Shown: positions 2,712 to 56,306 of the stretch, piece after piece
Position numbering within the stretch: position 1 is the first letter of the stretch
Layout of the letters: each line of letters opens with the position of its first letter
DNA from: Acidobacteriota bacterium
Lineage (GTDB): Bacteria; Acidobacteriota; UBA4820; DSQY01
Assembly: GCA_049591295.1 (NCBI GenBank)
Contig: JBAWEQ010000230.1
Location: 2,882 to 66,881, forward strand
DNA length: 64,000 nucleotides
Direction of reading: 5' to 3'
The notes under the pieces: generated by a model
Seen by the model: the letters and a program-made list of their open reading frames with translations, nothing else
What the model was told of the DNA's origin: nothing
The model's database searches: none
Made by a program: the position numbers and the translations under genes

Positions 2712-3217
2712 ATGGACCTCCTTTCATCCTCTGGCCATGAGAATAATGCCCGATTTTGGGGGTGTCAAGGGGTTCCGGCCGGGGGCAAAGGCCCGCCGGG
2801 CGGCCAGGGGAGGTTCCGCGGGAGGTGAGACCCATTGAAAATGGCCCTCCTGGAGGCCCAGTCCCAAGAAAGGCTAGGCCGCTCGGCGCCCCGCCGGGTG
2901 AGCGCCGGCGGCCGCCAGGGATTCCAAGCCGCGGAGGGGAGGGGACGGCCAGGTGTGGCGGGCGTCGCACTGCGGCACCCCCCCGTCTCGGCTCCGCCAA
3001 GTGCCCGAAGGTCCGTGCATTGCGGGCCGTCCGTAGGGGATGCTACACTGACCACAGAAAAGGGGGACCGTTGCAGCGAAGGTCTTCGAGGCATGTCCCC
3101 TGAACGTCGGGGCGGGGGCGCACGGGCCGATGGATCGGTGTGCCCTTCTGCCGGAGCCCGGTGGCCCGCGATCACGGTGCCGGGAAGGGAAAATGGGCCT
3201 TGCCGAGGGGGTGTGCC

Positions 3218-4342
3218 ATGCGTTTCGGTGTTCCCAAGGAATGCGCGATTCAGCCGAACTGTGACGAGCGCCGGGTGGGACTTTCGCCCGCCGGCTGCCG
3301 GGATCTGGTGGCCATGGGGGCCGAGCTGTACATCGAAAGCGGCGCGGGAGCACCGGCGGGATTCCTCGACGAGGCCTACCGCAGGGTGGGAGCCCAGGTG
3401 GTCTACTCCCGGGAGGAGGTCTTCGGCCGCTCGGACATGGTGGTCAAGATCGGGAGGCCCACGATGGAGGACCTGGAGCTCATGTCTCCGGGGTCCGGCA
3501 TCATGGCCTTCCTCCACCTCGCCCTGGCCGGCGACGCCTACACCGCGAAGCTCGCCGAGCGCGGGGTGACGGCCATCGGATACGAAATCATCCAGGAGGG
3601 CGACGGGACGCTTCCCGTCCTCAAGATCTCCTCCGAGATCGCGGGCAAGATGGCCCCCCAGATCGCCGGGAGGCTCCTGGAGACCGGGGCCGGCGGTATG
3701 GGCATCCTGCTGGGCGGAGCCCCGGGCATTCCTCCGGCGGACGTGGTGATCATGGGGGCCGGAGTTCTGGGCTACCATGCGGCCCGCTCCTTCCTCGGGC
3801 TGGGCTGCTCCGTCTACGTCTTGGATATTTCGCAGATCAAGCTGGAAGCCATCGACCGCGCCTTCGAGGGGCGGGTGGTGACGGCCCACGCCACGACCGA
3901 GAACGTGGAGAAGTTCTCCGCCTTCGCCGAGGTCCTGGTGGGGGCGGTCCTGGTGGCCGGCGAGATCGCCCCCATCATCGTGACCCGCGAGATGGTCCAG
4001 CGCATGCGGCCGGGCAGCGTGATCATCGATTTCTCCTTCGACCAGGGGGGCTGCGTGGAGACCACGCGCATGCAGGGTCCGGCCGGCGGCGTCTTCGTGC
4101 GCGAGGGGGTCCTCCACTTCGCCGTGCCCAACTGCCCCTCCTACGTGGCGAGGACCTCCACCTACGCCCTGACCTACGCCCTGCTGCCCTTCCTCAAGAG
4201 CATGCAGGAGAAGGGCCTCAAGGAGGCGCTCCGGACCTGGGCGGATCTGCGGCGCGGCTGTTACGTGTATGAGGGGAGCGCGGTGAGCCGCCACGTCACG
4301 AGCAGTCCCGCCGACCTGAAGCGGCTGCTGGGGGAGGGCTGA
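3218..4342 (+). CDS. ald: Alanine dehydrogenase (AlaDH/PNT family)
   Basis: MRFGVPKE... N-terminus typical of Ald, ATG at 3218; NAD-binding Gly-rich motif GAGVLG. The upstream part of ORF 3140..4342 (GTG start) is unsupported. Confidence 0.7.
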   Translation: MRFGVPKECAIQPNCDERRVGLSPAGCRDLVAMGAELYIESGAGAPAGFLDEAYRRVGAQVVYSREEVFGRSDMVVKIGRPTMEDLELMSPGSGIMAFLHLALAGDAYTAKLAERGVTAIGYEIIQEGDGTLPVLKISSEIAGKMAPQIAGRLLETGAGGMGILLGGAPGIPPADVVIMGAGVLGYHAARSFLGLGCSVYVLDISQIKLEAIDRAFEGRVVTAHATTENVEKFSAFAEVLVGAVLVAGEIAPIIVTREMVQRMRPGSVIIDFSFDQGGCVETTRMQGPAGGVFVREGVLHFAVPNCPSYVARTSTYALTYALLPFLKSMQEKGLKEALRTWADLRRGCYVYEGSAVSRHVTSSPADLKRLLGEG

Positions 4343-4345
4343 GCC

Positions 4346-5641
4346 ATGGCATGGATCGACGGATACAAGGCGAAGCTCTGCTCGGCCGATGAGGCCGTGT
4401 CGCGCATCAAGTCGAACGACTGGGTGTGGCTGAGCGGGAACGCCGCCGCCCCCTTCCTCCTCATGGAGGCGCTGGGCCGACGCGCGCCGGAACTGCAAAA
4501 CGTCACCCTCTCCCACGTGCTCCTCATGGGCGAGGACCCCCTGTCCAAGCCGGGCATGGAGAAGGCCTTCCACCACAACTCCCTCTTCGTCGGGCCCGCG
4601 GACCGGCCTTCGGTGAACGACGGGCGCTCCGCGTACGTGCCCATCCACCTGCACATGATCCCCAAGGCCATCCGTACGGGGGCCTGCCGGGTTGACGTGG
4701 CCATGATCCAGTGTTCCCCTCCCGACGAGCACGGCTTCATGAGCCTGGGGCTGGAGGTGATGGCCCAGAAGGCCGCCGTGGAGATGGCCAAGACCGTCAT
4801 CGTCCAGGTGAACGACCAGATGCCCAGAACGCTCGGGGACTCCTTCCTGCACGTCTCGAAGGCCGCCCACATCGTGGAGCACAGCTTCCCCCTGCTGGAG
4901 CTCCGCGGGAAGGAGGCCACGGAGGTGGAGCGGAAGATCGGCGCCCTCATCGCCGAGATGATCCCCGATGGCGCGACCCTTCAGATGGGCATCGGCGGCA
5001 TCCCCGATGCCGTGCTCACGCTCCTGGAGGGCAAACGCGACCTGGGAATCCATACCGAGATGATCTCGGACGGGCTGGTGCGGGCCATGGAGCAGGGGAT
5101 CATCACCGGAAACAAGAAGACCCTGCACCCGGGCAAGGTGGTCGCCACCTTCATCCTGGGCACACGGAAGCTCTACGACTTCGTCCACGACAACCCGCTC
5201 TTCGAGGTCCACCCCGTGGACCACACCAACGATCCCTTCATCATCGCCCAGAACGACAACATGGTGGCCATCAACTCGGCCCTGGAGGTGGACCTGACGG
5301 GCCAGGTCTGCTCGGACTCCATCGGTACCTACATCTACAGCGGCTTTGGGGGGCAGCTGGACTTCATCCGCGGCGCGGCGGCCAGCAAGGGGGGCAAGCC
5401 CATCATCGCCCTCCCCTCCACGGCCAAACAGGGCACCATGTCGCGCATCGTACCCAAGCTCAAGGAGGGGTCGGGCGTGGTCACCACGCGGGCGGACGTC
5501 CACTACGTGGTCACGGAGCACGGAGCGACCAACCTCTGGGGCAAAAACCTGAGCGAGCGCGCCAAGGCCCTCATCGCCATCGCGGACCCCGCCTTCAAGG
5601 AGACGCTGGAAAAGGAGGCCCGGGAGCGCCACCTTATCTAA
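4346..5641 (+). CDS. Acetyl-CoA hydrolase/transferase family protein (4-hydroxybutyrate CoA-transferase-like)
   Basis: 431 aa with conserved family motifs (GIGGIPDAV, SGFGGQLDF); GGGAGGG RBS before the ATG; 3-nt gap after the upstream gene. Confidence 0.85.
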   Translation: MAWIDGYKAKLCSADEAVSRIKSNDWVWLSGNAAAPFLLMEALGRRAPELQNVTLSHVLLMGEDPLSKPGMEKAFHHNSLFVGPADRPSVNDGRSAYVPIHLHMIPKAIRTGACRVDVAMIQCSPPDEHGFMSLGLEVMAQKAAVEMAKTVIVQVNDQMPRTLGDSFLHVSKAAHIVEHSFPLLELRGKEATEVERKIGALIAEMIPDGATLQMGIGGIPDAVLTLLEGKRDLGIHTEMISDGLVRAMEQGIITGNKKTLHPGKVVATFILGTRKLYDFVHDNPLFEVHPVDHTNDPFIIAQNDNMVAINSALEVDLTGQVCSDSIGTYIYSGFGGQLDFIRGAAASKGGKPIIALPSTAKQGTMSRIVPKLKEGSGVVTTRADVHYVVTEHGATNLWGKNLSERAKALIAIADPAFKETLEKEARERHLI

Positions 5642-5760
5642 CACCAACAGGGGATGGGCCCTCTGGAGGTGGAGAGTGGAGGGCGGAGGTCAGGGAACAG
5701 GCCTGAACAGATTTCGACCCAGAGTATGCCGGCGAGGAGACGGGGGCCGTAGGAGGCATC

Positions 5761-5988
5761 ATGCGAGTGGAAATCGAATACTGCGGCGTCTGAAACTACG
5801 AGCCGAAGGCCGCCGGTCTGGCGGCCAAGATCAAGGCGGCGTTTGGCGTGGAGCCCCGACTCATCCGCTCCTCGGGAGGCGTCTTCGAGGTCGTGGTGGA
5901 CGGGGCCCTGGTCCACTCGAAGAAGGGATCGGGGCAGTTTCCCGATGAGGACGAACTAATCCGCCGGCTCCAGAATAGGGCCGGTTGA
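5761..5988 (+). CDS. SelW-like (Rdx family) selenoprotein; Sec encoded by in-frame TGA at 5791-5793
   Basis: ATG at 5761 with AGGAGG 4 nt upstream. Translation MRVEIEYCGV-U-NYEPKAAGLAAKIKAAFGVEPRLIRSSGGVFEVVVDGALVHSKKGSGQFPDEDELIRRLQNRAG* shows the Rdx/SelW CxxU motif and the conserved FEV.VDG.L.HSKK core. The frame stays open from the TGA to the TGA at 5986. A hairpin follows 15 nt downstream. Confidence 0.7.
5809..5825 (+). promoter_or_regulatory. SECIS-like hairpin downstream of the selenocysteine UGA
   Basis: GCCGCC-GGUCU-GGCGGC: 6-bp GC stem with an apical loop containing GGUC (as in the E. coli fdhF SECIS apical loop). The stem starts 15 nt after the UGA. Confidence 0.45.
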
Positions 5989-6009
5989 GACGGGTCCGGG
6001 AGACCGGCC

Positions 6010-6450
6010 GTGGATATGAACACCGTCATCGGAGTGGTGGAGCGCAACGCCGACAAACTGGCCGCGCGCTGGCTGGAGCGCCTCCGCAAGGAGGCGGGGA
6101 TGGAGGATTACGCGCGCGAGCCGGCGCCCCTACTGCTGGATCACGTCCGCGCCGCCTACCAGGAAATCGGCACCTTTCTGGACCAGCCGAGGCACCAGGT
6201 CAACGCCGAGCACTTCCGGGCGACAGGAAGGCGCCGGAGGGAGAAGGGACTGCCGCTGGCCGAGGTGATCAGGGCCGTGCAACTCGCCCGTACGGTGTTA
6301 TGGCAATACGTCATCGAGCAGGGGATCTTCGACTCCACCGTCAACCTCTACCAGGCCTTGAACCTCTACAGGCAGATCGTGGGTTTCTTCGATCAGGCCG
6401 TGCTCTACGTGGTGGAGGGGTACTTCGAGGCGGCGAGTGGAGAATCTTGA
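6010..6450 (+). CDS. Hypothetical protein (possible RsbRD N-terminal-like helical domain)
   Basis: 146-aa ORF with GTG at 6010 and ATG at 6016; weak GGGAGA RBS; helical, charged composition; no enzymatic motifs recognised. Confidence 0.5.
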   Translation: MDMNTVIGVVERNADKLAARWLERLRKEAGMEDYAREPAPLLLDHVRAAYQEIGTFLDQPRHQVNAEHFRATGRRRREKGLPLAEVIRAVQLARTVLWQYVIEQGIFDSTVNLYQALNLYRQIVGFFDQAVLYVVEGYFEAASGES

Positions 6451-6534
6451 AGAACGGGTGATGAGGGGAGGGGAGGGGGAGAATAGGGCCGTCGGCTCCT
6501 CTCCGTCCTCCGCGCTCCCCATTTCACCGTCGGT

Positions 6535-7941
6535 TCAGCTCGCGACCACGGGCAGGTGCGCGAGCGCCTCCTCGATGGCCCCTCCCGGGCAGCCCCCGTT
6601 GTTGATCTTGCCGTCGATGAAGGCCTCGTAGGCCGACAGATCCAGGAGGCCGTGACCGCTGAGCGAGAACAGGATCGTGGCGGTGCGGCCCTCCTCCTTC
6701 AATTCGAGCGCTTTCTTCACCACCGCCGCCACGGCGTGGCCCGATTCGGGTGCCGGGATGATGCCCTCGGTCCTGGCGAACAGCATGGCGCTCTCGAACA
6801 CCTCCTGCTGCGGCACGGTCTCGGCCTTCATGAGGCCCTTTTCCACGAGCGCGCTGACGATGGGCGAGGCTCCGTGGTAGCGAAGCCCCCCGGCGTGCAC
6901 GGCGGGCGGGACGAATCCGTGGCCTAGCGTGTACATGCGGAGGATGGGGGTGAGGCCCGCCGTGTCGCCGAAGTCGTAGGCCATGCGCCCCTTCGTGAGG
7001 GTGGGACAGCTCTCGGGTTCCACGGCGACGGCGGCCACGGGTCGTCCTTTCAGGGCCTCCCCGACGAAGGGGAGGGCCAGCCCCCCGAAGTTGGAGCCGC
7101 CGCCGTGACAGCCGTAGACGTAGTCCGGATAGTCCCCCGCCAGGGCCATCTGCTTCTGCGCCTCCTGTCCGATGACGGTCTGGTGGAGGAGGACGTGGTT
7201 CAGCACGCTGCCCAGCGAATAGTGGGTGTCCTCCCGCCCCGCCGCCTCCTCCACCGCCTCGCTGATGGCGATGCCCAGGCTTCCGGGGGAATCGGGATGT
7301 TCGGCCAGGATGGTCCGTCCCGAGGCCGTGAGCGGCGACGGACTGGCCAGTACTTCGGCGCCGTAAAGGCGCATGAAGGTCTTGCGGTAGGGCTTCTGGT
7401 CGAAGCTCACTCGCACCATGTAGACGCGGCATTGGAGGTCGAAGAGGCGCGAGGCGAAGGCCAGGGCGCTGCCCCACTGACCGGCCCCGGTTTCGGTGGT
7501 CAGGCGCTGGATGCCCGAGATCTTGTTGTAGTAGGCCTGCGGAACCGCCGTGTTGGGCTTGTGGCTTCCCGCGGGCGAGACCCCCTCGTGTTTGAAGTAG
7601 ATGCGGGCCGGAGTGCCCAGGGCCTTCTCCAGCCGCCGCGCCCGAATCATGGGAGTAGGGCGCCACATGGCCAGCACATCGAGCACCGGCTCGGGGATGG
7701 CAACGAGGCGGTCGTGCCCCATTTCCTGCTCGATGAGCTGGGGCGGGAAGATCCGCGCCATCTCGTCGAAGGTCACGGGCAGGCCCGTGGCGGGGGTGAT
7801 GGGCGGGGCGAGCTCGAAGGGGAGGTCCGCCAGGACGTTGTACCAGTGTGTCGGGATCTCGCGGACGGGGAGAAGGACGCGGTCCTCTCCCGAAGCCTGG
7901 TTGAGCCTGCCGGTTCCGGTCGTCGTGTCTGCGTGTGCCAT
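6535..7941 (-). CDS. TrpB-like pyridoxal-phosphate-dependent enzyme (tryptophan synthase beta, TrpB2 type)
   Basis: 468 aa; PLP-lysine region ..HEGVSPAGSHKPNTA..; GGGSN loop; length typical of stand-alone TrpB2; GGAGG 5 nt before the ATG at 7941. Confidence 0.85.
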   Translation of the reverse strand: MAHADTTTGTGRLNQASGEDRVLLPVREIPTHWYNVLADLPFELAPPITPATGLPVTFDEMARIFPPQLIEQEMGHDRLVAIPEPVLDVLAMWRPTPMIRARRLEKALGTPARIYFKHEGVSPAGSHKPNTAVPQAYYNKISGIQRLTTETGAGQWGSALAFASRLFDLQCRVYMVRVSFDQKPYRKTFMRLYGAEVLASPSPLTASGRTILAEHPDSPGSLGIAISEAVEEAAGREDTHYSLGSVLNHVLLHQTVIGQEAQKQMALAGDYPDYVYGCHGGGSNFGGLALPFVGEALKGRPVAAVAVEPESCPTLTKGRMAYDFGDTAGLTPILRMYTLGHGFVPPAVHAGGLRYHGASPIVSALVEKGLMKAETVPQQEVFESAMLFARTEGIIPAPESGHAVAAVVKKALELKEEGRTATILFSLSGHGLLDLSAYEAFIDGKINNGGCPGGAIEEALAHLPVVAS

Positions 7942-8329
7942 GGGATCCTCCGATTCTCTTCGGCCAACAAAAAAGCCCTCCGCTTCCGGAGGGCTTCGTA
8001 CGCGTTCGCTTGGTACGATGAGGCTACAGAGCCGCCTCGCGCCCTCCGGTTGCGCCGACGCACCACCACCAGCCGAGGATGGGGTTCGTGATCGGGGCTG
8101 AACCGAAGGGCATCATGGCCTCTGGGCCTCCAACACGGGGAGGCTACCGCATGGCCCGGGAGGTTGTCAAGCACGCGTCCTTCGCACGCGTCCTTCGCGG
8201 TTTCCATGTCTGGCCTTGGGTTCGTCCCTGGAATGGACTAACCTACCCGGAAGCCGGCAGCCCGCAGTGGATGGCCCGCGGGGAATGGGGGGAGGCATGG
8301 GGCCGTTGATGCCGTGATGACCGATAGGG

Positions 8330-10282
8330 ATGGAGGCTCGAGATGAAGGCTGGGGAGTAGGCGTGGCTGGTGGAGGAGGGCCCGAGACGCGGAAATCCCT
8401 CTCCGAGGTGCACAGCAGCGTCCACGTGCCGTGGACCGGCAATCTGTTGCGCCGCATCTTCGCCGTGGCGGGTCCGGCATACCTCGTCAGCGTGGGCTAC
8501 ATGGACCCGGGGAACTGGGCCACGGACCTGGCTGCAGGGGCCCACTACAACTATGCCCTGCTCTGGGTGCTCCTCATGTCCAACCTGATGGCCGTGCTGT
8601 TGCAGGCCCTGGCGGCACGGCTTGGCGTGGTGCGCGGCCTGGACCTGGCCCAGGCCTGCCGGAGAGAGTATCCACGCCCGGTGAACGCGGCCCTGTACGT
8701 GCTCTGCGAGATAGCCATCACCGCCTGCGACCTGGCGGAGGTCATCGGTTCGGCCATCGCGCTGAAGCTCCTCTTCGGCCTGCCGATGGTGTGGGGCGTG
8801 CTGATCACGGGGGCCGACACCTTCGCGCTCCTCTTCCTGAGCCACCTCGGGATCCGGAAGATGGAGGCCTTGATCCTCGGCCTCATCACGGTTATCGGCA
8901 CCGGTTTTCTCGTGGAGATCCTGTTGGCCAGACCCGAGTGGGGCGGCGTGGCAAGAGGATTCCTCCCGATCCTGCCCGACAAGGCGGCCCTCTTCGTCGC
9001 CATCGGAATGCTGGGGGCGACGGTCATGCCCCACAACCTCTACCTGCACAGCTCCCTGGTCCAGAGCAGGACCATCGGGGACACCCTGAAGGAGAAATGG
9101 CAGGCCATCAAGCTCAATACGCTGGACTCCGCGGTGGCCCTGAACATGGCTTTCCTCGTAAACGCCGCCATCCTCATCATGGCGGCGGCCGTCTTCTACC
9201 GCTCGGGGCACCGGGAGGTGGCGGAGATCCAGGACGCCTACCGTTTGCTGGAACCCATCCTCGGCGTGGCAGTAGCTCCCGTGGCCTTCGCGTTGGCCCT
9301 TCTGGCCTCAGGCCAAAGCTCAACCATCACGGGCACCCTGGCGGGCCAGATCGTGATGGAGGGCTTCCTCAACATCCGCATCGCGCCCTGGCTGCGGCGC
9401 CTCATCACGCGGCTGCTGGCCATCGTCCCCGCGGTCCTGACGCTCATCTACTTCGGCGAGCGGGGCACGGGCCCCCTCCTGGTCCTTTCTCAGGTGGTCC
9501 TTTCCCTGCAGCTCCCCTTCGCCATCATCCCGCTCGTGCACTTCGTCTCCGACAGGAAGCAGATGGGCGAACTGGCCATCGGCCGGCCCACGAAGGTCCT
9601 GGCGTGGGTCACGGCCGCCGTCGTGGTCGTTCTGAACGCCAAGCTGGTATCCGACTGGCTCGCGGAGTGGACCCACGCCGCGGGAGACCGGGCTCTCTGG
9701 ATCCTTCTGGTGGCCGTCCCACTCAACCTGGCCGTCGGCGGCCTTTTGCTGTACGTTACGGTCAAGCCTTGGGTGGGGGGCCTGGCTCGGCGTGCGCCAG
9801 CGGCCCCGCGGATGGGAGTGCACGCCCCCTCGGAGGGGTTGGACCTGGAGATGGCCGCCAGTCCGTACAAGAAGATCGCGGTTGCCCTGGACTTCTCGGG
9901 CCGGGACGGAGCCATCCTGAAGGAGACCCTGAAGATGGCCGGCGACGGTCGTCCGGAGCTGGCGCTCATGCACGTCGTCGAGAGTGCCGGGGCTCGGTTC
10001 CTGGGAAAGGACTCGGCTGACGAGGAGAGCCAGCACGACGCCGAGCGCCTGGAGGGCTACGCCGAGACGCTGAGAGCGAAGGGCTTCAAGGTAACGACGA
10101 AGCTCGGCAGGGGCAAGCCGGTGCCCGTACTGGCGGCCATGATCGAGGAGTTCGGGCCCGACCTGGTGGTCCTGGGCGCCCACGGCCACCGCTTCTTGCT
10201 CGACCTCTTCCTCGGCTCCACCGCCGACGCGCTCCGCCACCGCATCCAAACCAGCGTCCTCGTGGTCGGCAAGGGACGCTGA
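8330..10282 (+). CDS. NRAMP-family divalent metal (Mn2+/Fe2+) transporter fused to a C-terminal universal stress protein (UspA) domain
   Basis: 650 aa. N-terminal ~450 aa carry NRAMP signatures (GYMDPGNWATDL, MPHNLYLHS). C-terminal ~140 aa are a UspA fold (KKIAVALDFS...LVVLGAHGHRFLLDLFLGSTAD...VLVVG). GGAGG 6 nt before the ATG. Confidence 0.85.
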   Translation: MEARDEGWGVGVAGGGGPETRKSLSEVHSSVHVPWTGNLLRRIFAVAGPAYLVSVGYMDPGNWATDLAAGAHYNYALLWVLLMSNLMAVLLQALAARLGVVRGLDLAQACRREYPRPVNAALYVLCEIAITACDLAEVIGSAIALKLLFGLPMVWGVLITGADTFALLFLSHLGIRKMEALILGLITVIGTGFLVEILLARPEWGGVARGFLPILPDKAALFVAIGMLGATVMPHNLYLHSSLVQSRTIGDTLKEKWQAIKLNTLDSAVALNMAFLVNAAILIMAAAVFYRSGHREVAEIQDAYRLLEPILGVAVAPVAFALALLASGQSSTITGTLAGQIVMEGFLNIRIAPWLRRLITRLLAIVPAVLTLIYFGERGTGPLLVLSQVVLSLQLPFAIIPLVHFVSDRKQMGELAIGRPTKVLAWVTAAVVVVLNAKLVSDWLAEWTHAAGDRALWILLVAVPLNLAVGGLLLYVTVKPWVGGLARRAPAAPRMGVHAPSEGLDLEMAASPYKKIAVALDFSGRDGAILKETLKMAGDGRPELALMHVVESAGARFLGKDSADEESQHDAERLEGYAETLRAKGFKVTTKLGRGKPVPVLAAMIEEFGPDLVVLGAHGHRFLLDLFLGSTADALRHRIQTSVLVVGKGR

Positions 10283-10458
10283 GCGGGGGAGCGGAGCCTC
10301 CCATTCCACCGGTATCCCAATTGCCTTCGATTCATCAGGGCCGGGTCGTGGAGAGGCAGCCCCGCGGATGGCGGGACTTGAAGGGGGACTCGGGGCTAGT
10401 GTCCTGTCTCATTGGTTCCTTGAACAAGCTTGGGCGGTGTGACAGGACACGAAGGGGT

Positions 10459-10490
10459 GCGGGGAAGGCACTTCCCCGCTCTTTCGGGGT
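10459..10490 (+). terminator. Candidate intrinsic terminator (GC hairpin plus U-run) downstream of the NRAMP-Usp gene
   Basis: 9-bp stem gcggggaag/cttccccgc with a 3-nt loop, followed by TCTTTCGGGG. Lies about 180 nt after the stop, so the assignment is tentative. Confidence 0.3.
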
Positions 10491-10590
10491 AACAGCCTGC
10501 CGGAGGCAGGCGTCCTAGGGGCGGAGCCCCTTGGGAAGTGTGGCGTCTCTGGCCCAACCCAATGATTCAAGTTATTCCTGAGACGCCACA

Positions 10591-10890
10591 CTAGATCCCC
10601 AGGCCGCTGAGGGTGTCGACGACCTGTGCAACGGCCCAGGCGAGGTCGGGGTGGCTGGTCTCGAACAGGGCCATGGAGTCTTGCAGGCGCTCGCGCAGTG
10701 AGTGCTCGCGCTGGAAGGGGGGCTCGCCCGGGTTTTCAAGGAGCTCCCGGGTGTCCCGCATGAGGTCGCGAAGCAGCTCCCGGGTAGGCTCGTCGACGTT
10801 CCTGGCCTGCTGGAGCTGGTCGTGAAGCGCCTGAAGCTTCTCCCTGAGCTCCTCCGGGTTCTGAACGGGGACTTGCTTCTCGTCCGGCAT
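10591..10890 (-). CDS. DUF4404 family protein
   Basis: Start moved to the internal ATG (MPDEKQ...) because AAGGAGG sits 7 nt upstream; helical, charged ~100-aa protein matching DUF4404-like composition. Confidence 0.65.
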   Translation of the reverse strand: MPDEKQVPVQNPEELREKLQALHDQLQQARNVDEPTRELLRDLMRDTRELLENPGEPPFQREHSLRERLQDSMALFETSHPDLAWAVAQVVDTLSGLGI

Positions 10891-15519: not shown

Positions 15520-15640
15520 CGGACCTCCTTCTGCCGCCGCCGCCCCCCGCACCGCTTCCGGGGATTCGGATTGATCAGGGAAACCGAGGGTAGCGCCCCA
15601 AAATTTCGGATGGAGGGGGGAAGGGCCGGCTGGGCCGGCG

Positions 15641-16657
15641 TCAGATGCCGAGATAGCGGGCGTACAGGGCGCGGGCGCGGGCCGGGTCGCCGGTCTTCTG
15701 GATGAGGGCCCGGCCGTCCGGATAGAGGGTGACCGGGTGCCCCTCCCATTCGGTCTGGATCAGGTAGGGGTTCTCGAAGATGGGTCCGGCCGTGGCGAGC
15801 CTGGCCTTCACGGCCGCCAGGTCCAGGCGGGTTCCCTTGGGTGCCAGGACGAGAATGCCGTCACGACCGCAGACCCGGTGGGTCCGGCTCACTCCCCGCT
15901 CCTCCAGGAAGTCGAATCGTCCGGCTCCGCAGCACGGGCACGCGGGATCGCGCGGGACCTCGACCCGACTGAAGGACCAGGTTTGGAGGTCCACGGTCAG
16001 CAGACCTCCGGCCACGAGGTCTCCGCGCCCGGCGAGGAGTTTGAGGGCTTCGCCGGCCTGTAAGGAGCCCACCGCACCCACGGCGGGTCCTATCACGCCC
16101 GCCGTATCGCAGGTGGGCGAGGAGCCGGCGGGGGGCGGCGCGGGAAAGCAGCACCGCAGACAGCCCCTCTTCCCCGGTTCCACCACCAGCACGGAGCCGT
16201 AGCTGGAAACGGCCCCGCCGTAGACCCAGGGCTTCCCTGACTTCACGGCGGCGTCGTTCAGGAGATAGCGGGTCTCGAAGTTGTCCGTGCCGTCCACGAC
16301 CATCTCGCACCGGGCGAAGAGGTCCGTGGCCAGCTCGGGGTCCAGGTCCGCGCTGTGGGCCTCCACCTCAAGGTCTCTCCGGGCTTCCAGGAGATGGTTC
16401 TGGGCGGCCACGGCCTTGGGAAGGCGCCTCTCGCAGTCTTCCTCGGTGTACAGGAGCTGACGGGTCAGATTGGAAACTTCCACGAAGTCCCGGTCCACCA
16501 GGACTAGAGCCCCGACGCCGGCCCTGGCCAGGAAGGCCGAGGAGACGCATCCGAGGGCGCCCAGCCCCACGATCCCCACGCGGGCTCCGGCGATGCGGGC
16601 TTGGCCCGCATCACCAATCCACGGAAGGAGCCGCTGCCGGCTGAAGCGGTCGGTCAC
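15641..16657 (-). CDS. ThiF/MoeB/HesA-family E1-like adenylyltransferase with unrecognised ~95-aa C-terminal extension
   Basis: RFSRQ...GIVGLGALG nucleotide-binding motif; CxxC...CxxC zinc motif (CLRCC...CPCCG). Likely GTG start at 16657-16655, overlapping the rodA stop (GTGA). The first ~230 codons of ORF 15641..17359 overlap rodA in another frame and are rejected. Confidence 0.7.
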   Translation of the reverse strand: MTDRFSRQRLLPWIGDAGQARIAGARVGIVGLGALGCVSSAFLARAGVGALVLVDRDFVEVSNLTRQLLYTEEDCERRLPKAVAAQNHLLEARRDLEVEAHSADLDPELATDLFARCEMVVDGTDNFETRYLLNDAAVKSGKPWVYGGAVSSYGSVLVVEPGKRGCLRCCFPAPPPAGSSPTCDTAGVIGPAVGAVGSLQAGEALKLLAGRGDLVAGGLLTVDLQTWSFSRVEVPRDPACPCCGAGRFDFLEERGVSRTHRVCGRDGILVLAPKGTRLDLAAVKARLATAGPIFENPYLIQTEWEGHPVTLYPDGRALIQKTGDPARARALYARYLGI

Positions 16658-24552: not shown

Positions 24553-24695
24553 GGGAAACCCCTTTCCAGCCAATCGAATGATACCCCATAGCCGTCAAGG
24601 GCTCAAGCCCGATGAGGCCTTTGCCGGGCCGGTGCGATGTTCACTTGCCGGAGGGCTCCCTCCGGCCCCATAATACGGCTCCAGGAGGTCCGTCC

Positions 24696-25274
24696 ATGAA
24701 GGGTCAGAATGCTGCTCCGGCTGGTTCGGGAGGCTCCATGAGGAGCTTTTGGATCGTCATCGCCTTGGCCGTGGCGATCCTCGGCGTCTACTTGCTCCGG
24801 ACGGGCCTTCGCGGCGGTGGGCCTGCGGGGCTGGTACCCTCGGGCCAACGTTCTCCCGCCGGTACGGCGGCCATCGAGCCCGTGACGTCCGGTGCCAGCT
24901 CCGTGGACCTGGCTTCGTTGAAGGGAAAGGTCGTCGTTCTCCACTTCTGGGCGACCTGGTGCCCGCCCTGCAGGGCCGAGTTTCCGGAGTTTGCACGGTA
25001 CGCCGGGGCTCACCAGGAGGACCCTGGAATCGTCATCCTCCCGGTGTCGGTAGACAACGACAAGGCGCCGGTTCTGACCTTCCTCCAGGCCATTCCGCAG
25101 CATTTCCCCGTCTACATCGACCAGGGCGGACTGGCGGACCAGATGGGCGTGACCGCCATCCCCACGACCGTAGTCCTGGACCGGGAGGGCAAGGTGGCCT
25201 GGACGGCGCAGGGCGCCACGGACTGGTCGTCCAAGGGCGTCCCGGCGGTGGTCCGAAAGCTGGATCATGAGTGA
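24696..25274 (+). CDS. TlpA-family thiol:disulfide oxidoreductase (thioredoxin fold, periplasmic)
   Basis: WATWCPPC active site; signal/anchor FWIVIALAVAIL; ATG at 24696 with AGGAGG 7 nt upstream. Confidence 0.8.
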   Translation: MKGQNAAPAGSGGSMRSFWIVIALAVAILGVYLLRTGLRGGGPAGLVPSGQRSPAGTAAIEPVTSGASSVDLASLKGKVVVLHFWATWCPPCRAEFPEFARYAGAHQEDPGIVILPVSVDNDKAPVLTFLQAIPQHFPVYIDQGGLADQMGVTAIPTTVVLDREGKVAWTAQGATDWSSKGVPAVVRKLDHE

Positions 25275-26889
25275 GCCGGCCGGCCGGGCGCCCCAGCGAG
25301 TCGATGCCAAGGTCCTGATCGGGGGGGAGTGGTACCAGAAGGACGACCGCCTGGAGAGCCTCAACCCGGCCACCGGCGAGATCATCGGATACGCGCCCCT
25401 CTGCAACAAGGAGGACGTGGGTTTGGCCGTGCGCGCCGCCAGGGAGGCGCAGCCCTCCTGGGCGGCCCTGCCGCTGGATCGCAGGATCGGTCACCTGGAG
25501 ACGCTGAGGGGGCTGGTGGCGCAGGAGGGCGACGCCCTGGCCTCTCTCATCACCCAGGAATCGGGCAAGCCGCTTCAGGAAGCCCACTTTTTGGAGATTC
25601 TGGGCACCCTCGATCTCATAGCCGGCCTCTGCAAGGGGGCGCCGGCCTACCTCGACGACCGCCGTGTGAGGGGAGGAAATCCTCTCCTGTGGGGGAAGCG
25701 CCACTGGATCCGCAGGGTGCCGCTCGGCGTGCTGGGAGTGATCTCGCCGTGGAACCTGCCGCTGGCCATCCCCATGGGGCAGATCCTGCCCGCCCTCCTG
25801 GCCGGCAACACCGTCGTGTTCAAGCCGTCCGAACTCGCGCCGCTCGTGGGAACGAAGCTGGCTGGGCTCTTCCACCGGGCGGGCTTCCCTCCCGGCGTGC
25901 TCAACCTGGTGACGGGCGGGCGCGAGACGGGCGCCCATCTGGTGGAAGGCGGATTGGACGGCCTCCTCTTCACTGGGTCCACGGGCGCCGGACATGAAAT
26001 CCAGGCTAAGCTAGCGCCGAGGCTCATCCCCACGGGGCTGGCGTTGGGGGGGAAGGACGCCTTCCTGGTTCTCCCGGACGCCCCGTTCGCGAGGACCGTC
26101 AACGGGGCCGCATGGGCGGCCTGCTCCGGGACCGGCCAGGCCTGCGCTTCCGCGGAGCGGTTCTTCGCGCCGGCCCACATGAAGGATAGATTCGCCGCCG
26201 CCGTGGCGGACAAGGTCGGGGCGCTCAGGGCTGGGAACGGCATGGAGGAGGGAGTCGAGGTCGGCCCCCTGATCTCTTCCCAGCAGCTCGAACGGGTTGA
26301 GGCCCACGTGCAAGAAGCCGTCTCGAAGGGGGCGCGCCTTCTGTGCGGCGGACGGCGACTGCCCGGCCCAGGCTTCTTCTTCCAGCCCACGGTACTGGTG
26401 GACGTGCCCCTGGACTGCGCTCTCATGAGGGAGGAGACCACGGGACCGGTGGTGCCCGTCATGGGGTACGCCGACCTGGATGAGGCGGTCCGATGGACCA
26501 ACGACTCTCGTTACGGCCTGTCCGCTTCGATCTGGACCGCGGATGTGGAGCGGGGCCTGGCCCTCGGCCGCCGGCTGGCCGTGGGCTCCGTCTGGATCAA
26601 CGACGTCTCCTACATCCATACCCAGGCGCAGTTCCCCTGGGGCGGAATGAAGCAGTCCGGATCGGGCCGCACCCCCTGGCTTGGTTCGCTCCATGAATGG
26701 ACCTCGATCCAGCTCCTGGGGGCCGACAGAGGTCAGCGGGAGGGAGAGCTCTGGTGGTTTCCCTACAGCTCCGACGGCCTGGACCTGGCTAGGCGGATGC
26801 GGTTTCTCCTCGCCGAGGGGCTGGCGGGACGCCTCATCAACCTGATACCCTTCTTCAAAGACCTGGTGAAGGTGAGAGGGACTCGTTGA
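25267..26889 (+). CDS. Aldehyde dehydrogenase family protein with ~60-aa C-terminal extension
   Basis: 540 aa; ALDH Glu and Cys active-site regions (ELGGK-like GGKDAFLV; catalytic Cys region ..GQACASAERF..); overlaps the TlpA stop by 8 nt. Confidence 0.85.
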   Translation: MSEPAGRAPQRVDAKVLIGGEWYQKDDRLESLNPATGEIIGYAPLCNKEDVGLAVRAAREAQPSWAALPLDRRIGHLETLRGLVAQEGDALASLITQESGKPLQEAHFLEILGTLDLIAGLCKGAPAYLDDRRVRGGNPLLWGKRHWIRRVPLGVLGVISPWNLPLAIPMGQILPALLAGNTVVFKPSELAPLVGTKLAGLFHRAGFPPGVLNLVTGGRETGAHLVEGGLDGLLFTGSTGAGHEIQAKLAPRLIPTGLALGGKDAFLVLPDAPFARTVNGAAWAACSGTGQACASAERFFAPAHMKDRFAAAVADKVGALRAGNGMEEGVEVGPLISSQQLERVEAHVQEAVSKGARLLCGGRRLPGPGFFFQPTVLVDVPLDCALMREETTGPVVPVMGYADLDEAVRWTNDSRYGLSASIWTADVERGLALGRRLAVGSVWINDVSYIHTQAQFPWGGMKQSGSGRTPWLGSLHEWTSIQLLGADRGQREGELWWFPYSSDGLDLARRMRFLLAEGLAGRLINLIPFFKDLVKVRGTR

Positions 26890-26890
26890 G

Positions 26891-27607
26891 ATGCTGCACG
26901 TGGGGATTACGGCGGACTGGGAAGAGGGCGAAGGAGGCCGCAAGCTCGTCCTGAGCCGGGAGTACTTCGAGTGGGTCAAGGGTGCGGGGCTCCTGCCCAT
27001 CGCCCTGCCGGCGCTTCCGGGCTCCGAGGCGGAGGCCCTGGCGGGCCTGTCGGCCCTGGTGCTCTCGGGAGGCCACGACATTGCCCCCTCCCTCTACGGA
27101 GCCGATCCGGAACCCCGTCCCGGGGAGCACTACTCCCACCCCGACCGGACGGCGTTTGAATTCACGCTCCTCTGGCGCTGCCTGAAGCTCGGCGTTCCCG
27201 TTCTGGGCATCTGTCTGGGATGTCAGACCATCAACGCGGCCCTCGGCGGCGACCTGGTCCGGCACCTGGAGGACCCCCGCCTGCGGCACCGCCGAAGCGC
27301 TCCAGGAAAACCCTCTCCCCGCCACCGTCTTCACGTGGAGCCGGGCACCCTGGTGGCAAGCCTCTATCCTGGTCGGGACACGAGGGTCCACTCCTCCCAT
27401 CACCAGGCCGTGGGGAACCTGGCGGCGGGCTGGAGGATTACGGCGCGGGGTCCCGATGAGGTGCCCGAAGCCATCGAGCACCCCGCGCATCCGCGCGTCC
27501 TGGGCATCCAATGGCACCCGGAGCGAACGCCACGATCGCCCTTTTCGCGAAACCTCGGCCGCTGGCTCAGGGACCAGGCGGAGAGATATGGCGGGCATGG
27601 TGGATGA
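26891..27607 (+). CDS. Class I glutamine amidotransferase-like peptidase C26 (gamma-glutamyl-gamma-aminobutyrate hydrolase PuuD-like)
   Basis: GICLGCQ catalytic Cys motif and His (HHQAV...WHPE); starts 2 nt after the ALDH stop. Confidence 0.75.
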   Translation: MLHVGITADWEEGEGGRKLVLSREYFEWVKGAGLLPIALPALPGSEAEALAGLSALVLSGGHDIAPSLYGADPEPRPGEHYSHPDRTAFEFTLLWRCLKLGVPVLGICLGCQTINAALGGDLVRHLEDPRLRHRRSAPGKPSPRHRLHVEPGTLVASLYPGRDTRVHSSHHQAVGNLAAGWRITARGPDEVPEAIEHPAHPRVLGIQWHPERTPRSPFSRNLGRWLRDQAERYGGHGG

Positions 27608-27658
27608 GGGACGACAGATGAGGAATGAAGAAACCAAGGCGGGGATGAGCCCTTCGCT

Positions 27659-27687
27659 CCCTGTTTCCCTGTTTCCCTGTTTCCCTG
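27659..27687. repeat. Tandem octamer repeat (CCCTGTTT) x3 plus partial, 14 nt upstream of the DinG-like start
   Basis: Three perfect head-to-tail CCCTGTTT copies at 27659-27682, then CCCTG. Confidence 0.8.
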
Positions 27688-27700
27688 GCTCGATCTTCGC

Positions 27701-29641
27701 ATGAAAGGCCCCCGCCCGGAGGAGCCCGACTTTCGAGCGCTGCTCGGCCCCGAAGGGCCGCTGGCCAGGGAGCCCTTCTACGAGTACCGGCCCGGTCAGG
27801 AGGAGATGGCCGCCGCCGTTTGGCGCGCCCTGCGCCACGAGGGGTTCCTGTTGGCCGAGGCGGGGACGGGAACGGGGAAAAGCCTGGCCTATCTGCTCCC
27901 GGCCGCCCACCTGGACCGCAGGGTCGTGATCTCAACGGGCACCAAGGCCCTCCAAGAGCAGCTGGCCAGGAAGGACATCCCGCTTCTTGAGCGGATTCTG
28001 GAGCGGCCTGTGCGCGCCGTAACGGTGAAGGGGCGCGCCAACTACCTGTGTCTCCATTACTGGCGCCGCTTTCTGGCGGAGCCGCTGTTCACCTCGCCGG
28101 CGGACGCGGCCCACCTGAAACGGCTGGAGGCCTGGGCCTCCTCCACCAAGACGGGCGACAAGGCCGAGTGGGATGGGATCCCTGAGGATTTCTCCACATG
28201 GCGGGAGATCAACGCGCGGGGAGAGCGCTGCCTGGGATCCTCCTGCCCGCTGTTCAACGACTGCCACGTGGTTCAGCTCAGGCGCCAGGCCGAGGCCGCC
28301 GATCTGGTCGTGACCAACCACCACCTGCTCTGCGCCGACCTGGCGCTGAAGAACCGCTGGGACGCCGCCGCCCTGCCCGAGTACGCGCACCTCGTCATGG
28401 ACGAGGCCCACGAGGCGGAGGAGGCGGCCACCTCCTTCTTCGGGGTGAGTGTGAGCCGCCGCATGGTGCAGGAGTGGCTCCACGACGCGGCGAAAGTCGC
28501 CGGCGGGGGCGAAGGCAATCTGAGCCGCATCCTGCAGGACGCAACGCAGGCGGTGCTCTTCTTCTTCGGACCCATAGAGGCCCGCGGGGAGCGGCGCGAG
28601 GTCATTCGTGCGGGCCGTCCCGGTGGGGGCGAGGAGGCCCTGCGCGAGAGGATGGACAATGCCCTGGACGCCGCGGGCCTCGCCTTGCAGGGCACGGACG
28701 GCGGGGGCGAGGTGGAGGGGCTGCTGGGCCGGCTCGAAACCCTTCGGGAGGCCGTGGAGTTCGTGCTGGACGGCGCGGACGACGCCTACGTGCGCTACGT
28801 GGAGGCCCGCGGCCGGAACGTGATCCTGGGCGCCAGCCCCATCGACGTGGGGGATCTGATGCGCGAGAACCTCTACGGCCGGCTCAACGGCGCCGCCTTC
28901 ACCTCGGCCACTCTCACGGTTGGGGGCTCCTTCGCCTATTTTAGAAGCCGCATGGGGATTCCCGAGGGGACCGAGGAACTCCGCCTGCCCAGTCCGTTCG
29001 ACTACGGCCGGCAGGGCCTCCTCTACGTCCCGGCGCGATTTCCGGACCCCGGCGACGAGGGGTTTCTGGATGCCCTCCTGGCCGCCCTCCCCCCGTTGAT
29101 CGGATTCTCCCGCGGCCGGGCCTTCGTGCTGTGCACCTCCTACCGCAACATGCGGGCCGTGGCCCAGTCCCTGGAAGCCCTGCTGCCCTTTCCGGTCCTG
29201 GTCCAGGGGGAGGAGCCCAAGGCGTTGCTGCTGGAGCGTTTCCGGCAGGCGGGCAACGCGGTGCTCGTGGCCACCGCCTCCTTCTGGCAGGGCGTGGACG
29301 TTCAGGGCGAGGCACTCTCTCTCGTGGTCATCGACAAGCTGCCCTTCGCCGCCCCCAACGATCCCCTGACCCAGGCGAGGATCGACGGCCTGCGAAAGTC
29401 CGGGCAGGACCCCTTCACGGGCTACCAGGTGCCCATGGCCGCCATCATGCTCCAGCAGGGGGTGGGCCGCCTGATCCGCTCCACGCGGGACCGGGGCGTG
29501 GTGGCCTGCTTCGACGTGAGGCTGAGGCGGAGATCCTACGGCCGGCTGCTGCTGGCCTCGCTCCCCCCCTTCGCCGTGACCGAGAGCCTGGACGCGGTGG
29601 AGGCCTTCTTCTCCTCCGAAGCCGAGCAGGAGGCGCCTTGA
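27701..29641 (+). CDS. ATP-dependent DNA helicase, DinG/Rad3-like (DEAD_2 + Helicase_C_2)
   Basis: Walker A AEAGTGTGKS; DEAH box (VMDEAHEAEE); C-terminal helicase motifs (ATASFWQGVD, QGVGRLIRS). Confidence 0.85.
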   Translation: MKGPRPEEPDFRALLGPEGPLAREPFYEYRPGQEEMAAAVWRALRHEGFLLAEAGTGTGKSLAYLLPAAHLDRRVVISTGTKALQEQLARKDIPLLERILERPVRAVTVKGRANYLCLHYWRRFLAEPLFTSPADAAHLKRLEAWASSTKTGDKAEWDGIPEDFSTWREINARGERCLGSSCPLFNDCHVVQLRRQAEAADLVVTNHHLLCADLALKNRWDAAALPEYAHLVMDEAHEAEEAATSFFGVSVSRRMVQEWLHDAAKVAGGGEGNLSRILQDATQAVLFFFGPIEARGERREVIRAGRPGGGEEALRERMDNALDAAGLALQGTDGGGEVEGLLGRLETLREAVEFVLDGADDAYVRYVEARGRNVILGASPIDVGDLMRENLYGRLNGAAFTSATLTVGGSFAYFRSRMGIPEGTEELRLPSPFDYGRQGLLYVPARFPDPGDEGFLDALLAALPPLIGFSRGRAFVLCTSYRNMRAVAQSLEALLPFPVLVQGEEPKALLLERFRQAGNAVLVATASFWQGVDVQGEALSLVVIDKLPFAAPNDPLTQARIDGLRKSGQDPFTGYQVPMAAIMLQQGVGRLIRSTRDRGVVACFDVRLRRRSYGRLLLASLPPFAVTESLDAVEAFFSSEAEQEAP

Positions 29642-31092
29642 ATCGCGGAAGGGTCAAAGCCTCGTGGGTCAGGGTCCTGGCCGCGGCGGTGGGCTTGGGA
29701 TTGCCCGTAGCCGCGCTGCCCCAGGAAACGGGCCAAGTCCACGCCGCCATCGGCGAGCTGCTCCCGCTCTGGTCCATCCTGCCCTTCGCGGGAATCCTGC
29801 TCTCCATAGCCCTCTTTCCGCTGATGGCTCCGCACTTCTGGCACCGGCACTACCCCAAGGTCTCCCTCTTCTGGGCGCTGGTCTTCGGCGTGCCCTTCCT
29901 GCTGGTCTACCGGATGAGCGCCTGGCACGAGGTGCTCCATATCTACCTCGTGGACTACGTCCCGTTCATCATCCTTCTCTGGGGCCTCTTTGCGGTGTCG
30001 GGCGGATTGGTCCTGCGGGGGACCATGGCCGGGACTCCCAAGGTGAACACGCTCTTCCTCCTGATCGGCACGGTCATCGCCTCCTGGACCGGCACCACGG
30101 GCGCGGCGATGCTGCTCATCCGCCCCCTGCTGCGGGCTAACGCCGCCCGGCACCACAAGGCCCACGTGGTCGTCTTCTTCATCTTCCTGGTGGCCAACAT
30201 CGGAGGGAGCCTCACACCGCTCGGCGATCCGCCCCTCTTCCTGGGGTTCCTGCACGGCGTGCCCTTCTTCTGGACGCTGCGGCTTCTGCCGATGATGGGT
30301 GCTGCCTCGGTGGTGCTGCTCGCGGTCTTCTATGGCATCGACAGGTACTACTTCCGGAAGGAACCGGACGAGGTTCACAGGAAAGAGGAGACGGCCCAGA
30401 CCCCGCTACGCCTAGACGGGTGGCACAACCTCTTCTACCTGGCCGGCATCCTGGGGGCGGTCCTGCTGTCGGGGTTCTGGCACGGGGGGGTGCTCGACGT
30501 GCTGGGCGTCCACCTGGAGGTGCAGGACCTCGTCCGCGATGCCATCATCGTGGCCATGGCCCTCCTCTCGGTGTGGACGACGCCTGGCCGCCTGAGGAAG
30601 GACAACGGGTTCACGTGGGAGCCCATCCGGGAGGTGGCCCTCCTCTTCGCCGGAATCTTCGCGACGATCATCCCGGCCTTGGCCATCCTGAAGGCGGGCG
30701 AGAGCGGTCACATGGCTTTCCTGGTTGCCTCCGTCCGCGAGCCGTGGGAATACTTCTGGGCCGCCGGCGGGCTCTCGTCGTTCCTGGACAACGCTCCCAC
30801 CTACTTGACCTTCTTCAACATGCAGCTCGGCAGGTTCTACCCCGGCCTGCCTGAATCGCAAGCCGTGGTCCAGCTGATTCAGACGCACGCACGTTTTCTC
30901 GAGGCGGTGGCCACGGGGGCGGTCTTCATGGGGGCCAACACGTACATCGGGAACGCGCCCAACTTCATGGTGCGCTCGATCGCTGAGGAGGCTGGGGTGG
31001 ATATGCCGTCCTTCTTCGGCTACCTATTCAAGTGGGCGGTCCCGATCCTCCTCCCGCTTTTCGTACTCATCAGCCTTATATTCTTTCTGTGA
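29638..31092 (+). CDS. NhaD/ArsB-like ion transporter family permease (putative Na+/H+ antiporter)
   Basis: About 480 aa, polytopic with signal-like N-terminus. Start uncertain: TTG at 29638 overlapping the DinG stop, or a downstream GTG. The upstream part of ORF 29131.. lies in another frame over dinG and is rejected. Confidence 0.6.
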   Translation: MNRGRVKASWVRVLAAAVGLGLPVAALPQETGQVHAAIGELLPLWSILPFAGILLSIALFPLMAPHFWHRHYPKVSLFWALVFGVPFLLVYRMSAWHEVLHIYLVDYVPFIILLWGLFAVSGGLVLRGTMAGTPKVNTLFLLIGTVIASWTGTTGAAMLLIRPLLRANAARHHKAHVVVFFIFLVANIGGSLTPLGDPPLFLGFLHGVPFFWTLRLLPMMGAASVVLLAVFYGIDRYYFRKEPDEVHRKEETAQTPLRLDGWHNLFYLAGILGAVLLSGFWHGGVLDVLGVHLEVQDLVRDAIIVAMALLSVWTTPGRLRKDNGFTWEPIREVALLFAGIFATIIPALAILKAGESGHMAFLVASVREPWEYFWAAGGLSSFLDNAPTYLTFFNMQLGRFYPGLPESQAVVQLIQTHARFLEAVATGAVFMGANTYIGNAPNFMVRSIAEEAGVDMPSFFGYLFKWAVPILLPLFVLISLIFFL

Positions 31093-31112
31093 TCGCGTTG
31101 TAGGAGGCGGCC

Positions 31113-31694
31113 ATGGCGGTCAGGTACGCCGAGCTGGTGGTTGACGGCCCACGGGGATGGGACATCGGGTTCATCCGTGGCTTTCTGCGCGCAAAGGGGC
31201 TGGCAGACAGGGTCCTGAACGCGGAAGCCGAAGGGTTCGACTGCGCCCACCTGCGGGAGCAGGTTCGTGAGTTCCTCCATCCCGCCGCTGAGACTCTGCA
31301 CCTTCTCGTTCCCGAGGACCTCGTGCCCGACGTCCTCGCTGCCGTGGACGATTCGTCCAAGGCGGGAAGACCCATGGCGGTGCGGCACCGGCGCAGCGTC
31401 GCGGGGGCTCGGTTCCGGTTCACGGTCCACGTCTTCTCGAAGGAGCATGCGGAGCGCGCGAGGGCGATCTTCGACGGCCTCCCGGAAGGCGTAGCGCTCT
31501 CCCCGGACGCGTCCTTCGAGGAGATCGTGGACGACGGCGTGAGAGGCGTGGACTTGTACGCGCCCGTCCACGCCTATGAGATGAAGGGGGAGGGAGCCGT
31601 GGAGGGAGATCTGGAAGGCGTGCTGGCCGTCCACCGAACCTGCCGGGACGACGAGCAGGTGCACCCGGAGGCGCTCCACATTCTGGCCGAGTAG
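31113..31694 (+). CDS. Hypothetical protein
   Basis: 193 aa; AGGAGG 5 nt before the ATG; GC3-rich coding signal; no recognisable domain. Confidence 0.5.
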   Translation: MAVRYAELVVDGPRGWDIGFIRGFLRAKGLADRVLNAEAEGFDCAHLREQVREFLHPAAETLHLLVPEDLVPDVLAAVDDSSKAGRPMAVRHRRSVAGARFRFTVHVFSKEHAERARAIFDGLPEGVALSPDASFEEIVDDGVRGVDLYAPVHAYEMKGEGAVEGDLEGVLAVHRTCRDDEQVHPEALHILAE

Positions 31695-50904: not shown

Positions 50905-51038
50905 GCTTCCCTCCTGTGGCGCGGCCTGCGCCCTATAGGGAAAAACAACAACGGAGGGCCGCCGCCATTCCCACGCGGCTACCTTCCGCCCCTCCGGCGA
51001 GTCTCCCTCCGGCACCCGCTGGGGCAATTACTGATCCG

Positions 51039-56108: not shown

Positions 56109-56306
56109 GGGTAGATCCTCCCCCTTGAACGCGCCCCGCGCGCGGCTACTGGGTAGCATAGAGTCCCGGCGGCTCCCTGTCAATGTATTTGAATGCTCAT
56201 CCATGGCCGGTGTTCAGAGCCCATCCATCCGTGAAGCCAAAGCACTACATGGCTTCCGTTGGGTGGATTCCTCCGGCACTGGCCGCTTGTGGCAGTGAGC
56301 AACTGC

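Follow-up and report, generated by a model that had tools for sequence, protein, structure and literature searches.

A predicted SelW-like selenoprotein gene with an in-frame UGA and a conserved SECIS-type hairpin in an Acidobacteriota genome

The DNA analysed here, referred to as the window, is a 64-kb stretch (64,000 nucleotides) of contig JBAWEQ010000230.1 from an uncultured Acidobacteriota lineage. On its plus strand, positions 5761-5988 hold a frame of 75 codons plus a terminal TGA that is interrupted at codon 11 by an in-frame TGA, the putative codon for selenocysteine (Sec, U). Direct reading of the sequence located a Shine-Dalgarno-like AGGAGG at 5751-5756, separated by the four-nucleotide spacer CATC from the ATG at 5761. 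Translation of the frame gave MRVEIEYCGV up to the internal stop TGA (5791-5793) and NYEPKAAGLAAKIKAAFGVEPRLIRSSGGVFEVVVDGALVHSKKGSGQFPDEDELIRRLQNRAG from there to the terminal stop TGA (5986-5988). The redox motif C8-G9-V10-U11 corresponds to TGC GGC GTC TGA at 5782-5793 (+), and a hairpin resembling a bacterial selenocysteine insertion sequence (SECIS) follows at 5808-5826 (+), with the stem formed by 5808-5814 and 5820-5826 and the loop GGUCU at 5815-5819. In the mechanical list of open reading frames (ORFs), this frame is represented only by a 46-amino acid (aa) ORF that starts from a GTG after the TGA (5848-5988), so that the gene goes unnoticed in a six-frame view. A consensus scan of 5400-6700 found neither a sigma-70 promoter nor an intrinsic terminator. 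The AGGAGG, the frame with its internal TGA and CGVU motif, and the failure of ORF calling had all been set out in a preliminary description made from the sequence alone, and every sequence-level statement of that description was confirmed. Based on the translation, the family profiles and 80 orthologue loci, we consider it very probable that 5761-5988 is an intact gene encoding a 75-residue SelW-like (Rdx / SelT-SelW-SelH) selenoprotein in which the UGA is recoded as Sec.

For profile tests, the 75-residue product was used with U written as C. The assignment to the Rdx/SelW family, which had been proposed from the motif and the sequence core, was borne out by scores above the curated cutoffs of two models. 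Pfam Rdx (PF10262) matched with 72.7 bits against a cutoff of 22.6, aligning residues 2-71 to profile positions 1-73 of 74, and NCBIfam TIGR02174 (CXXU_selWTH) matched with 62.6 bits (cutoff 34.2). The closest subfamily model was the Campylobacter-type NCBIfam equivalog NF041051 (SelTWH_Campy), for which the score of 83.5 bits fell just below the cutoff of 88, so that the product is not assigned to this equivalog. A phmmer search against solved structures matched eight Rdx-fold chains over residues 2-73, including 2FA8 (Atu0228; E 7.9e-10), MIEN1 2LJK (E 3.7e-8) and mouse SelW 2NPB (E 9.8e-6). Position 11 of the product, the U, aligned with the second Cys of the solved Rdx/SelW proteins, which reads CTQC in 2FA8 and CEPC in 2LJK. 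By these scores and alignments, the product belongs to the Rdx family and carries, as C-G-V-U, the motif that defines it. A thioredoxin-like fold is seen in the members of the family that have been solved.

To follow the internal TGA across relatives, one genome per species was scanned, and 80 loci encoding full-length relatives were obtained, giving 81 sequences together with the window. These loci were from Acidobacteriota, Desulfuromonadales, Desulfobulbales, Gemmatimonadota, Krumholzibacteria, Fibrobacteres, Calditrichota, Planctomycetota, Verrucomicrobiota, Dehalococcoidia and others, about ten phyla in total. The U position of the CxxU motif was occupied by an in-frame stop in every one of them, and this stop was TGA in 81/81, with C-x-x-TGA retained throughout. 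The terminal stops of the same genes were mixed (TGA in 41, TAA in 24 and TAG in 16). Coding periodicity was equal on both sides of the TGA and in one frame: mean entropies at the first, second and third codon positions were 0.78/0.72/1.46 over the eight codons leading up to the TGA and 0.71/0.67/1.20 over the twelve that follow, and 5' of the start there was no periodicity (1.85/1.86/1.87). In homologues of the TGC type, the position of the UGA aligned with Cys. Ordinary genes of the window also end most often in TGA (24 of 51); therefore the genetic code is standard, and the UGA at 5791-5793 would be recoded locally. The reading of this UGA as a Sec codon, as originally suggested, is supported by these patterns.

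The distribution of the TGA bears directly on the idea that the locus is a pseudogene, namely a CxxC Rdx gene killed when its TGC mutated to the nonsense codon TGA, the hairpin being a coincidence of GC-rich, Ala-rich sequence. TGC and TGA are indeed one base apart, Cys forms of the Rdx family do exist, and the window is rich in 7-bp GC hairpins. However, a disabling mutation does not account for a TGA that is present in all orthologues of about ten phyla and is flanked on either side by sequence under purifying selection, nor for a hairpin that is kept with synonymous covariation, as described below. The orthologues are not assembly copies, since 77 of the sequences used for covariation are distinct and come from different phyla. 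Moreover, the gene is intact, and its protein is 93-96% conserved in the two nearest relatives, L001 (Acidobacteria bacterium BP9.bin43, assembly JAJYCJ01) and L002 (assembly JBMFSH01), whose nucleotide identities to the window are about 95% and 93%. The probability of a pseudogene is accordingly regarded as negligible.

The same comparison was informative on whether the short ORF itself could be the real product, translated from GTG 5848 or another start after the TGA, with the ten upstream codons serving as a leader or remaining untranslated. Mechanical calling yields exactly this 46-aa ORF, and public databases hold homologues of similar size (42-57 aa). Nevertheless, the match to the family profile starts at residue 2 and takes in the catalytic CxxU, and a protein truncated in this way would lack both the redox motif and the first beta strand. 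Coding periodicity in one and the same frame is seen in the eight codons preceding the TGA and again from the TGA to 5848, and a start codon is found ten codons 5' of the TGA in 64/80 relatives (56 ATG, 4 GTG and 4 TTG). A short product is thus highly improbable. The database entries instead illustrate an annotation problem. A homologous-protein search returned four matches, all of them N-terminally truncated and of no use for a Sec/Cys comparison; among the truncated homologues, the 49-aa P0001, 96% identical, carries the JGI name 'selenoprotein W-related protein'. The RefSeq 'Rdx family protein' of Thermomicrobium roseum (WP_012642931.1) is annotated likewise. Its coding sequence (CDS) begins at position 358 of the locus, past an in-frame TGA at 328-330 (L083:328-540, equal to NC_011961.1, about 408197-408409), and the frame 5' of that TGA reads ...RIRIEYCTS-TGA, with a hairpin CCACC/GGUGG in the SECIS register. 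The entry, from the complete genome of a cultured organism, appears to be a Sec form that was annotated in truncated form. That annotation pipelines systematically truncate or leave out selenoprotein genes has been documented (PMC13326102, PMC12013277).

The hairpin noted 15 nt after the TGA was found as described, with GCCGCC-GGUCU-GGCGGC occupying 5809-5814, 5815-5819 and 5820-5825. An additional G-C pair (5808/5826) extends it to a perfect 7-bp stem, GGCCGCC/GGCGGCC. The core conserved among relatives spans 5810-5824, in which G5816 and U5819 are invariant. Its energy was -16.4 kcal/mol within a 55-nt context and -14.9 kcal/mol when folded alone. Zhang and Gladyshev, in their bSECISearch work of 2005, reportedly described a consensus with a UGA-to-loop distance of about 16-37 nt, a loop of 3-14 nt and a G among the first two loop bases. 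The window hairpin fits this consensus with a distance of 21 nt, a 5-nt loop GGUCU containing G and a stem of 7 bp. The nucleotides of the hairpin also encode A-A-G-L-A-A, which lies just after the CxxC/CxxU motif in the alignment to solved Rdx proteins. Protein and RNA constraints are predicted from this arrangement to overlap in these codons.

The resemblance of the loop to that of the Escherichia coli fdhF SECIS, which had been pointed out in the preliminary description, holds for the K-12 sequence. In both cases the hairpin lies directly 3' of the UGA within the CDS and has an apical loop GGUC(U). The fdhF arrangement is UGA-N18-GGUC in ...GCA GGU CUG C..., and that of the window is UGA-N21-GGUCU in ...GCC GGU CUG G.... 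The codons GGU CUG (Gly-Leu; 5815-5820 in the window) are thus shared in the same frame, within V-A-G-L in fdhF and A-A/S/V-G/S-L in the SelW-like family. The UGA-to-loop distance differs by exactly one codon, the window loop being further away. In contrast to the perfect GC-rich 7-mer of the window, a longer stem with interruptions is predicted for fdhF.

Comparative evidence for the hairpin was obtained from the 81 sequences, in all of which the 55 nt from the TGA onward aligned without gaps. The loop positions G26 and U29 were invariant, and RNAalifold recovered a conserved stem in the same register (columns 20-25 with 29-34). Across the 7-bp stem, 86.5% of cells were paired, compared with 28-59% when the 3' partners were slid by 1-3 columns. 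Double-sided changes occurred in 58 stem cells, and the observed covariation score was reached by 0/500 shuffles. At columns 21:33 and 24:30 both partners are third bases of codons, yet they covary. Ala GCC was opposite NNG in 50/50 cases, GCU opposite NNA or NNG in 20/20, and GCG opposite NNC in 5/7. At 24:30 there were just two departures from C:G (GCG/CUC and GCA/CUU), both of which were synonymous and compensatory. As judged from the codons involved, synonymous third-position covariation of this kind cannot come from protein-level selection. Where changes at paired bases are non-synonymous, the amino acids at +7 and +10 co-change (A/A, V/A, S/G, S/E and T/V) with pairing kept. Three homologues of the TGC (CxxC) type, from Sinorhizobium, Nocardia and Klebsiella, formed only 2-3 of the 7 pairs in the SECIS register; the fourth homologue fetched as a control, that of Thermomicrobium roseum, turned out to be another TGA form and has the hairpin. 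A covariance model, R1, was then built from L003-L080 only, leaving out the window, L001 and L002. In the 64-kb window it identified one site, 5791-5832, with 56.2 bits (E about 1e-10), the next best score being 9.5 bits. The Cys forms gave no match to R1, and the fdhF SECIS was not matched by this family-specific model either. The proposal of a SECIS-type hairpin is therefore upheld by a common register in all relatives and by the covariation within it.

Several observations weigh against a selenoprotein gene at this locus. The plus strand of the window, with 66% GC, contains 84 perfect 7-bp hairpins. Although a 60-nt stretch folded better than shuffles (z -3.6), the 141-nt context did not (z -0.10), and the minimum free energy fold of 55-60 nt was an alternative, longer pairing with the downstream GGCGGCG (-21.9 vs -16.4 kcal/mol). 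Searching Rfam with the whole window at the gathering score, and with 5700-6050 at E<=10, revealed no SECIS family, the only matches (a miRNA, psaA RNA and a snoRNA) being chance ones. The Cys-form controls numbered three only. Because R1 also captures conserved coding sequence, it does not test structure alone but serves as a signature of the family. Finally, Pfam searches of the 50 called genes found no SelA, SelB or SelD, and no tRNA-Sec is present in the 64-kb window. On the other side, the alternative pairing with GGCGGCG is not conserved in relatives, and single-sequence folding was not used as evidence. That no SECIS would be found by covariance models had been named in advance as an outcome that would count against the proposal; this was the case for the families of Rfam, whereas the purpose-built R1 did find the site, and the absent Rfam match was judged to be a gap in Rfam coverage, not a refutation. 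Taken alone, the hairpin is weak evidence. It stands far above chance because of the TGA in 81/81 sequences, the conserved register and the covariation.

The lack of Sec machinery in the window was further supported by ARAGORN, which predicted only a tRNA-Val there, and by tblastn with SelD, SelA and SelB of one relative (L075), which found nothing in the 64 kb. This raises the alternative that the UGA is read through without Sec, for example because the lineage recently lost the machinery or because Cys or Trp is inserted, so that the gene would be silent or yield a Cys/Trp variant. It is documented that sister lineages have lost the Sec trait and SelW-like genes (PMC1794560). On the other hand, the hairpin and the TGA are both intact here and unchanged in L001 and L002, which would not be expected once SelB had been lost. 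TGA serves as a normal stop in the window, indicating that the code is not reassigned. In addition, orthologues adjoin selC-selD-selA-selB. In L075, a Verrucomicrobiae metagenome-assembled genome, the SelW-like gene heads a same-strand cluster (6001-10731) in which it is followed by tRNA-SeC (6282-6376), SelD (6468-7454), SelA (7442-8806; Pfam SelA, 399.9 bits) and SelB (8788-10731; GTP_EFTU, SelB beta-barrel and SelB winged helix domains). It is a complete Sec-decoding gene set adjoining the selenoprotein. In L053 (6441-7625), tRNA-SeC (6441-6537) lies 210 nt past the SelW-like gene. After it comes a SelD homologue with G-TGA-A-S-K as its N-terminal active-site motif, and the mechanical ORF of this homologue starts only past that TGA. 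By this motif, the SelD of L053 is itself probably a selenoprotein. Read-through without Sec is accordingly considered very unlikely at the window locus.

The two clusters also provide a hint of a functional tie between the SelW-like protein and the Sec pathway, for example as a selenium-handling redox partner, or with the UGA gauging the Sec-decoding capacity for downstream genes. Such selC-selD(-selA-selB) clusters headed by a SelW-like gene on the same strand were seen in 2/80 relatives (L075 and L053), and the gene in the window instead adjoins unrelated metabolic genes and a small RsbRD_N-like ORF. This possibility appears very unlikely.

Family membership, the conservation of the TGA and its flanking coding sequence, the conservation and covariation of the hairpin, and the linkage of orthologues to selC, selD, selA and selB are established here. 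The selenoprotein reading would involve the following steps. As conservation and the E. coli mechanism suggest, the UGA at 5791-5793 would be decoded as Sec in the Acidobacteriota host, with the hairpin at 5808-5826, 14-15 nt past the UGA and inside the CDS, acting as a bacterial SECIS. SelB-GTP-Sec-tRNA(Sec) would bind the apical loop GGUCU, in which a G and a U are invariant, and so be brought to the ribosome stalled at the UGA; Sec would then be delivered to UGA 5791, giving a 75-aa protein with C-G-V-U. By analogy with the family, the product most likely functions as a small thiol/selenol oxidoreductase that cycles via a reversible Cys-Sec selenenylsulfide.

This is a known kind of gene that was correctly identified, and its family, its SECIS and its mis-annotation have been described since 2005. 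Bacterial SelW-like CXXU selenoproteins share with the window product a length of about 70-80 aa, an N-terminal CxxU and the core GGVFEV..DG......SKK, along with a SECIS hairpin within the CDS just past the UGA and a G in a small apical loop; their putative role is a redox one. The window gene differs from them in nothing of substance, its host being an uncultured Acidobacteriota lineage. The Cys-type bacterial Rdx proteins, including Agrobacterium Atu0228 (2FA8), the Sinorhizobium meliloti 'SelT/SelW/SelH family protein' and those of Nocardia and Klebsiella, belong to the same family and agree in the motif position (CTQC/CSQC), with 34-39% identity over about 95% of the query. They differ in having TGC in place of TGA and about 20-30 more residues at the C-terminus, as well as in the absent SECIS-register hairpin. 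Mammalian SelW (2NPB) and MIEN1/C17orf37 (2LJK) are likewise Rdx proteins, with residues 2-71 aligned and CxxU/CxxC in the same place, but they are longer (chain lengths 96-117) and only distantly similar. In eukaryotic SelW, the SECIS is located in the 3' untranslated region and works with SBP2/eEFSec, unlike the bacterial element inside the CDS. Among the selenoprotein families in a survey of the Sargasso Sea, SelW-like CXXU proteins ranked first in abundance, with 48 genes, and were shown with bacterial SECIS elements (PMC1088965). SelW-like proteins have been listed for Geobacter (e.g. Geobacter sulfurreducens), Desulfotalea psychrophila, Symbiobacterium and others (PMC1794560), and Acidobacteria are among the listed selenoprotein holders (PMC1794560).

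Upstream of the SelW-like gene are an AlaDH/PNT-family dehydrogenase (3140-4339) and an acetyl-CoA hydrolase/transferase (4346-5638). Downstream, an ORF of 144-146 aa (6010/6016-6450, +) starts 22-28 nt past the SelW-like stop in the same frame and may be co-transcribed with the selenoprotein gene. It has a sub-threshold match to Pfam RsbRD_N (20.4 vs 24.3 bits) and is conserved in L001-L003 only, the last of which is 79% identical to the window at the nucleotide level. The gene order of dehydrogenase, acetyl-CoA hydrolase/transferase, SelW-like gene and 144-146-aa ORF is common to the same three loci only. The remaining 77 loci have different neighbours, and synteny is therefore uninformative on function. 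A second read-through, at the terminal TGA 5986-5988 into the in-frame downstream ORF, was considered and rejected; the terminal stops in relatives are mixed TGA/TAA/TAG, and the search with R1 gives no other SECIS of this type.

A screen of the window for TGA-spanning frames with coding signal on both sides, as candidates for a second selenoprotein, returned only gene junctions and antisense shadows. Two large oxidoreductases with Fe-S/CCG domains are encoded at 38340-41216 (+) and 54072-56204 (-), one being a fusion of FAD-oxidase, 4Fe-4S and CCG domains and the other a GlpC/HdrD-like protein. GlpC-type Fe-S oxidoreductases are a selenoprotein family known in Deltaproteobacteria (PMC1794560). 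Neither gene was among the TGA-spanning frames that passed this coarse screen, which was based on GC content at third codon positions (GC3), their sequences not having been inspected directly. Two thioredoxin-fold peroxiredoxin/redoxin genes (AhpC-TSA/Redoxin) at 50404-51027 (-) and 24612-25271 (+) have Pfam domains beginning at residues 81 and 78, which reflects either over-called starts or N-terminal extensions/signal sequences; no in-frame TGA was seen in them. Within 26858-31691, a run of four ORFs predicted by a crude gene caller was without a Pfam match, namely 26858-27910 (-), 29539-30378 (-), 30415-30888 (-) and 31113-31691 (+). Three of the four had atypical GC contents at codon positions (0.78-0.92 at the first position and GC3 of 0.64-0.73), and that at 31113-31691 was near-typical with a GC3 of 0.84. 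These ORFs may be mis-called frames or unusual genes. The region 15553-16653 (about 1.1 kb) was without a confident gene call, containing only a 108-aa ORF (15737-16063) whose coding statistics are weak; at the gathering score, the region matched no Rfam family.

For the host genome, the finding corrects the annotation from a truncated or absent ORF to a 75-aa selenoprotein. It also points to the organism as a probable user of selenocysteine, in which selA, selB, selC and selD together with further selenoproteins would be expected elsewhere in the genome. It also offers a worked example of overlapping constraints: six codons (A-A-G-L-A-A) would encode both a stretch of protein and a SECIS stem-loop, and synonymous as well as amino-acid covariation keeps the RNA paired across about ten phyla.

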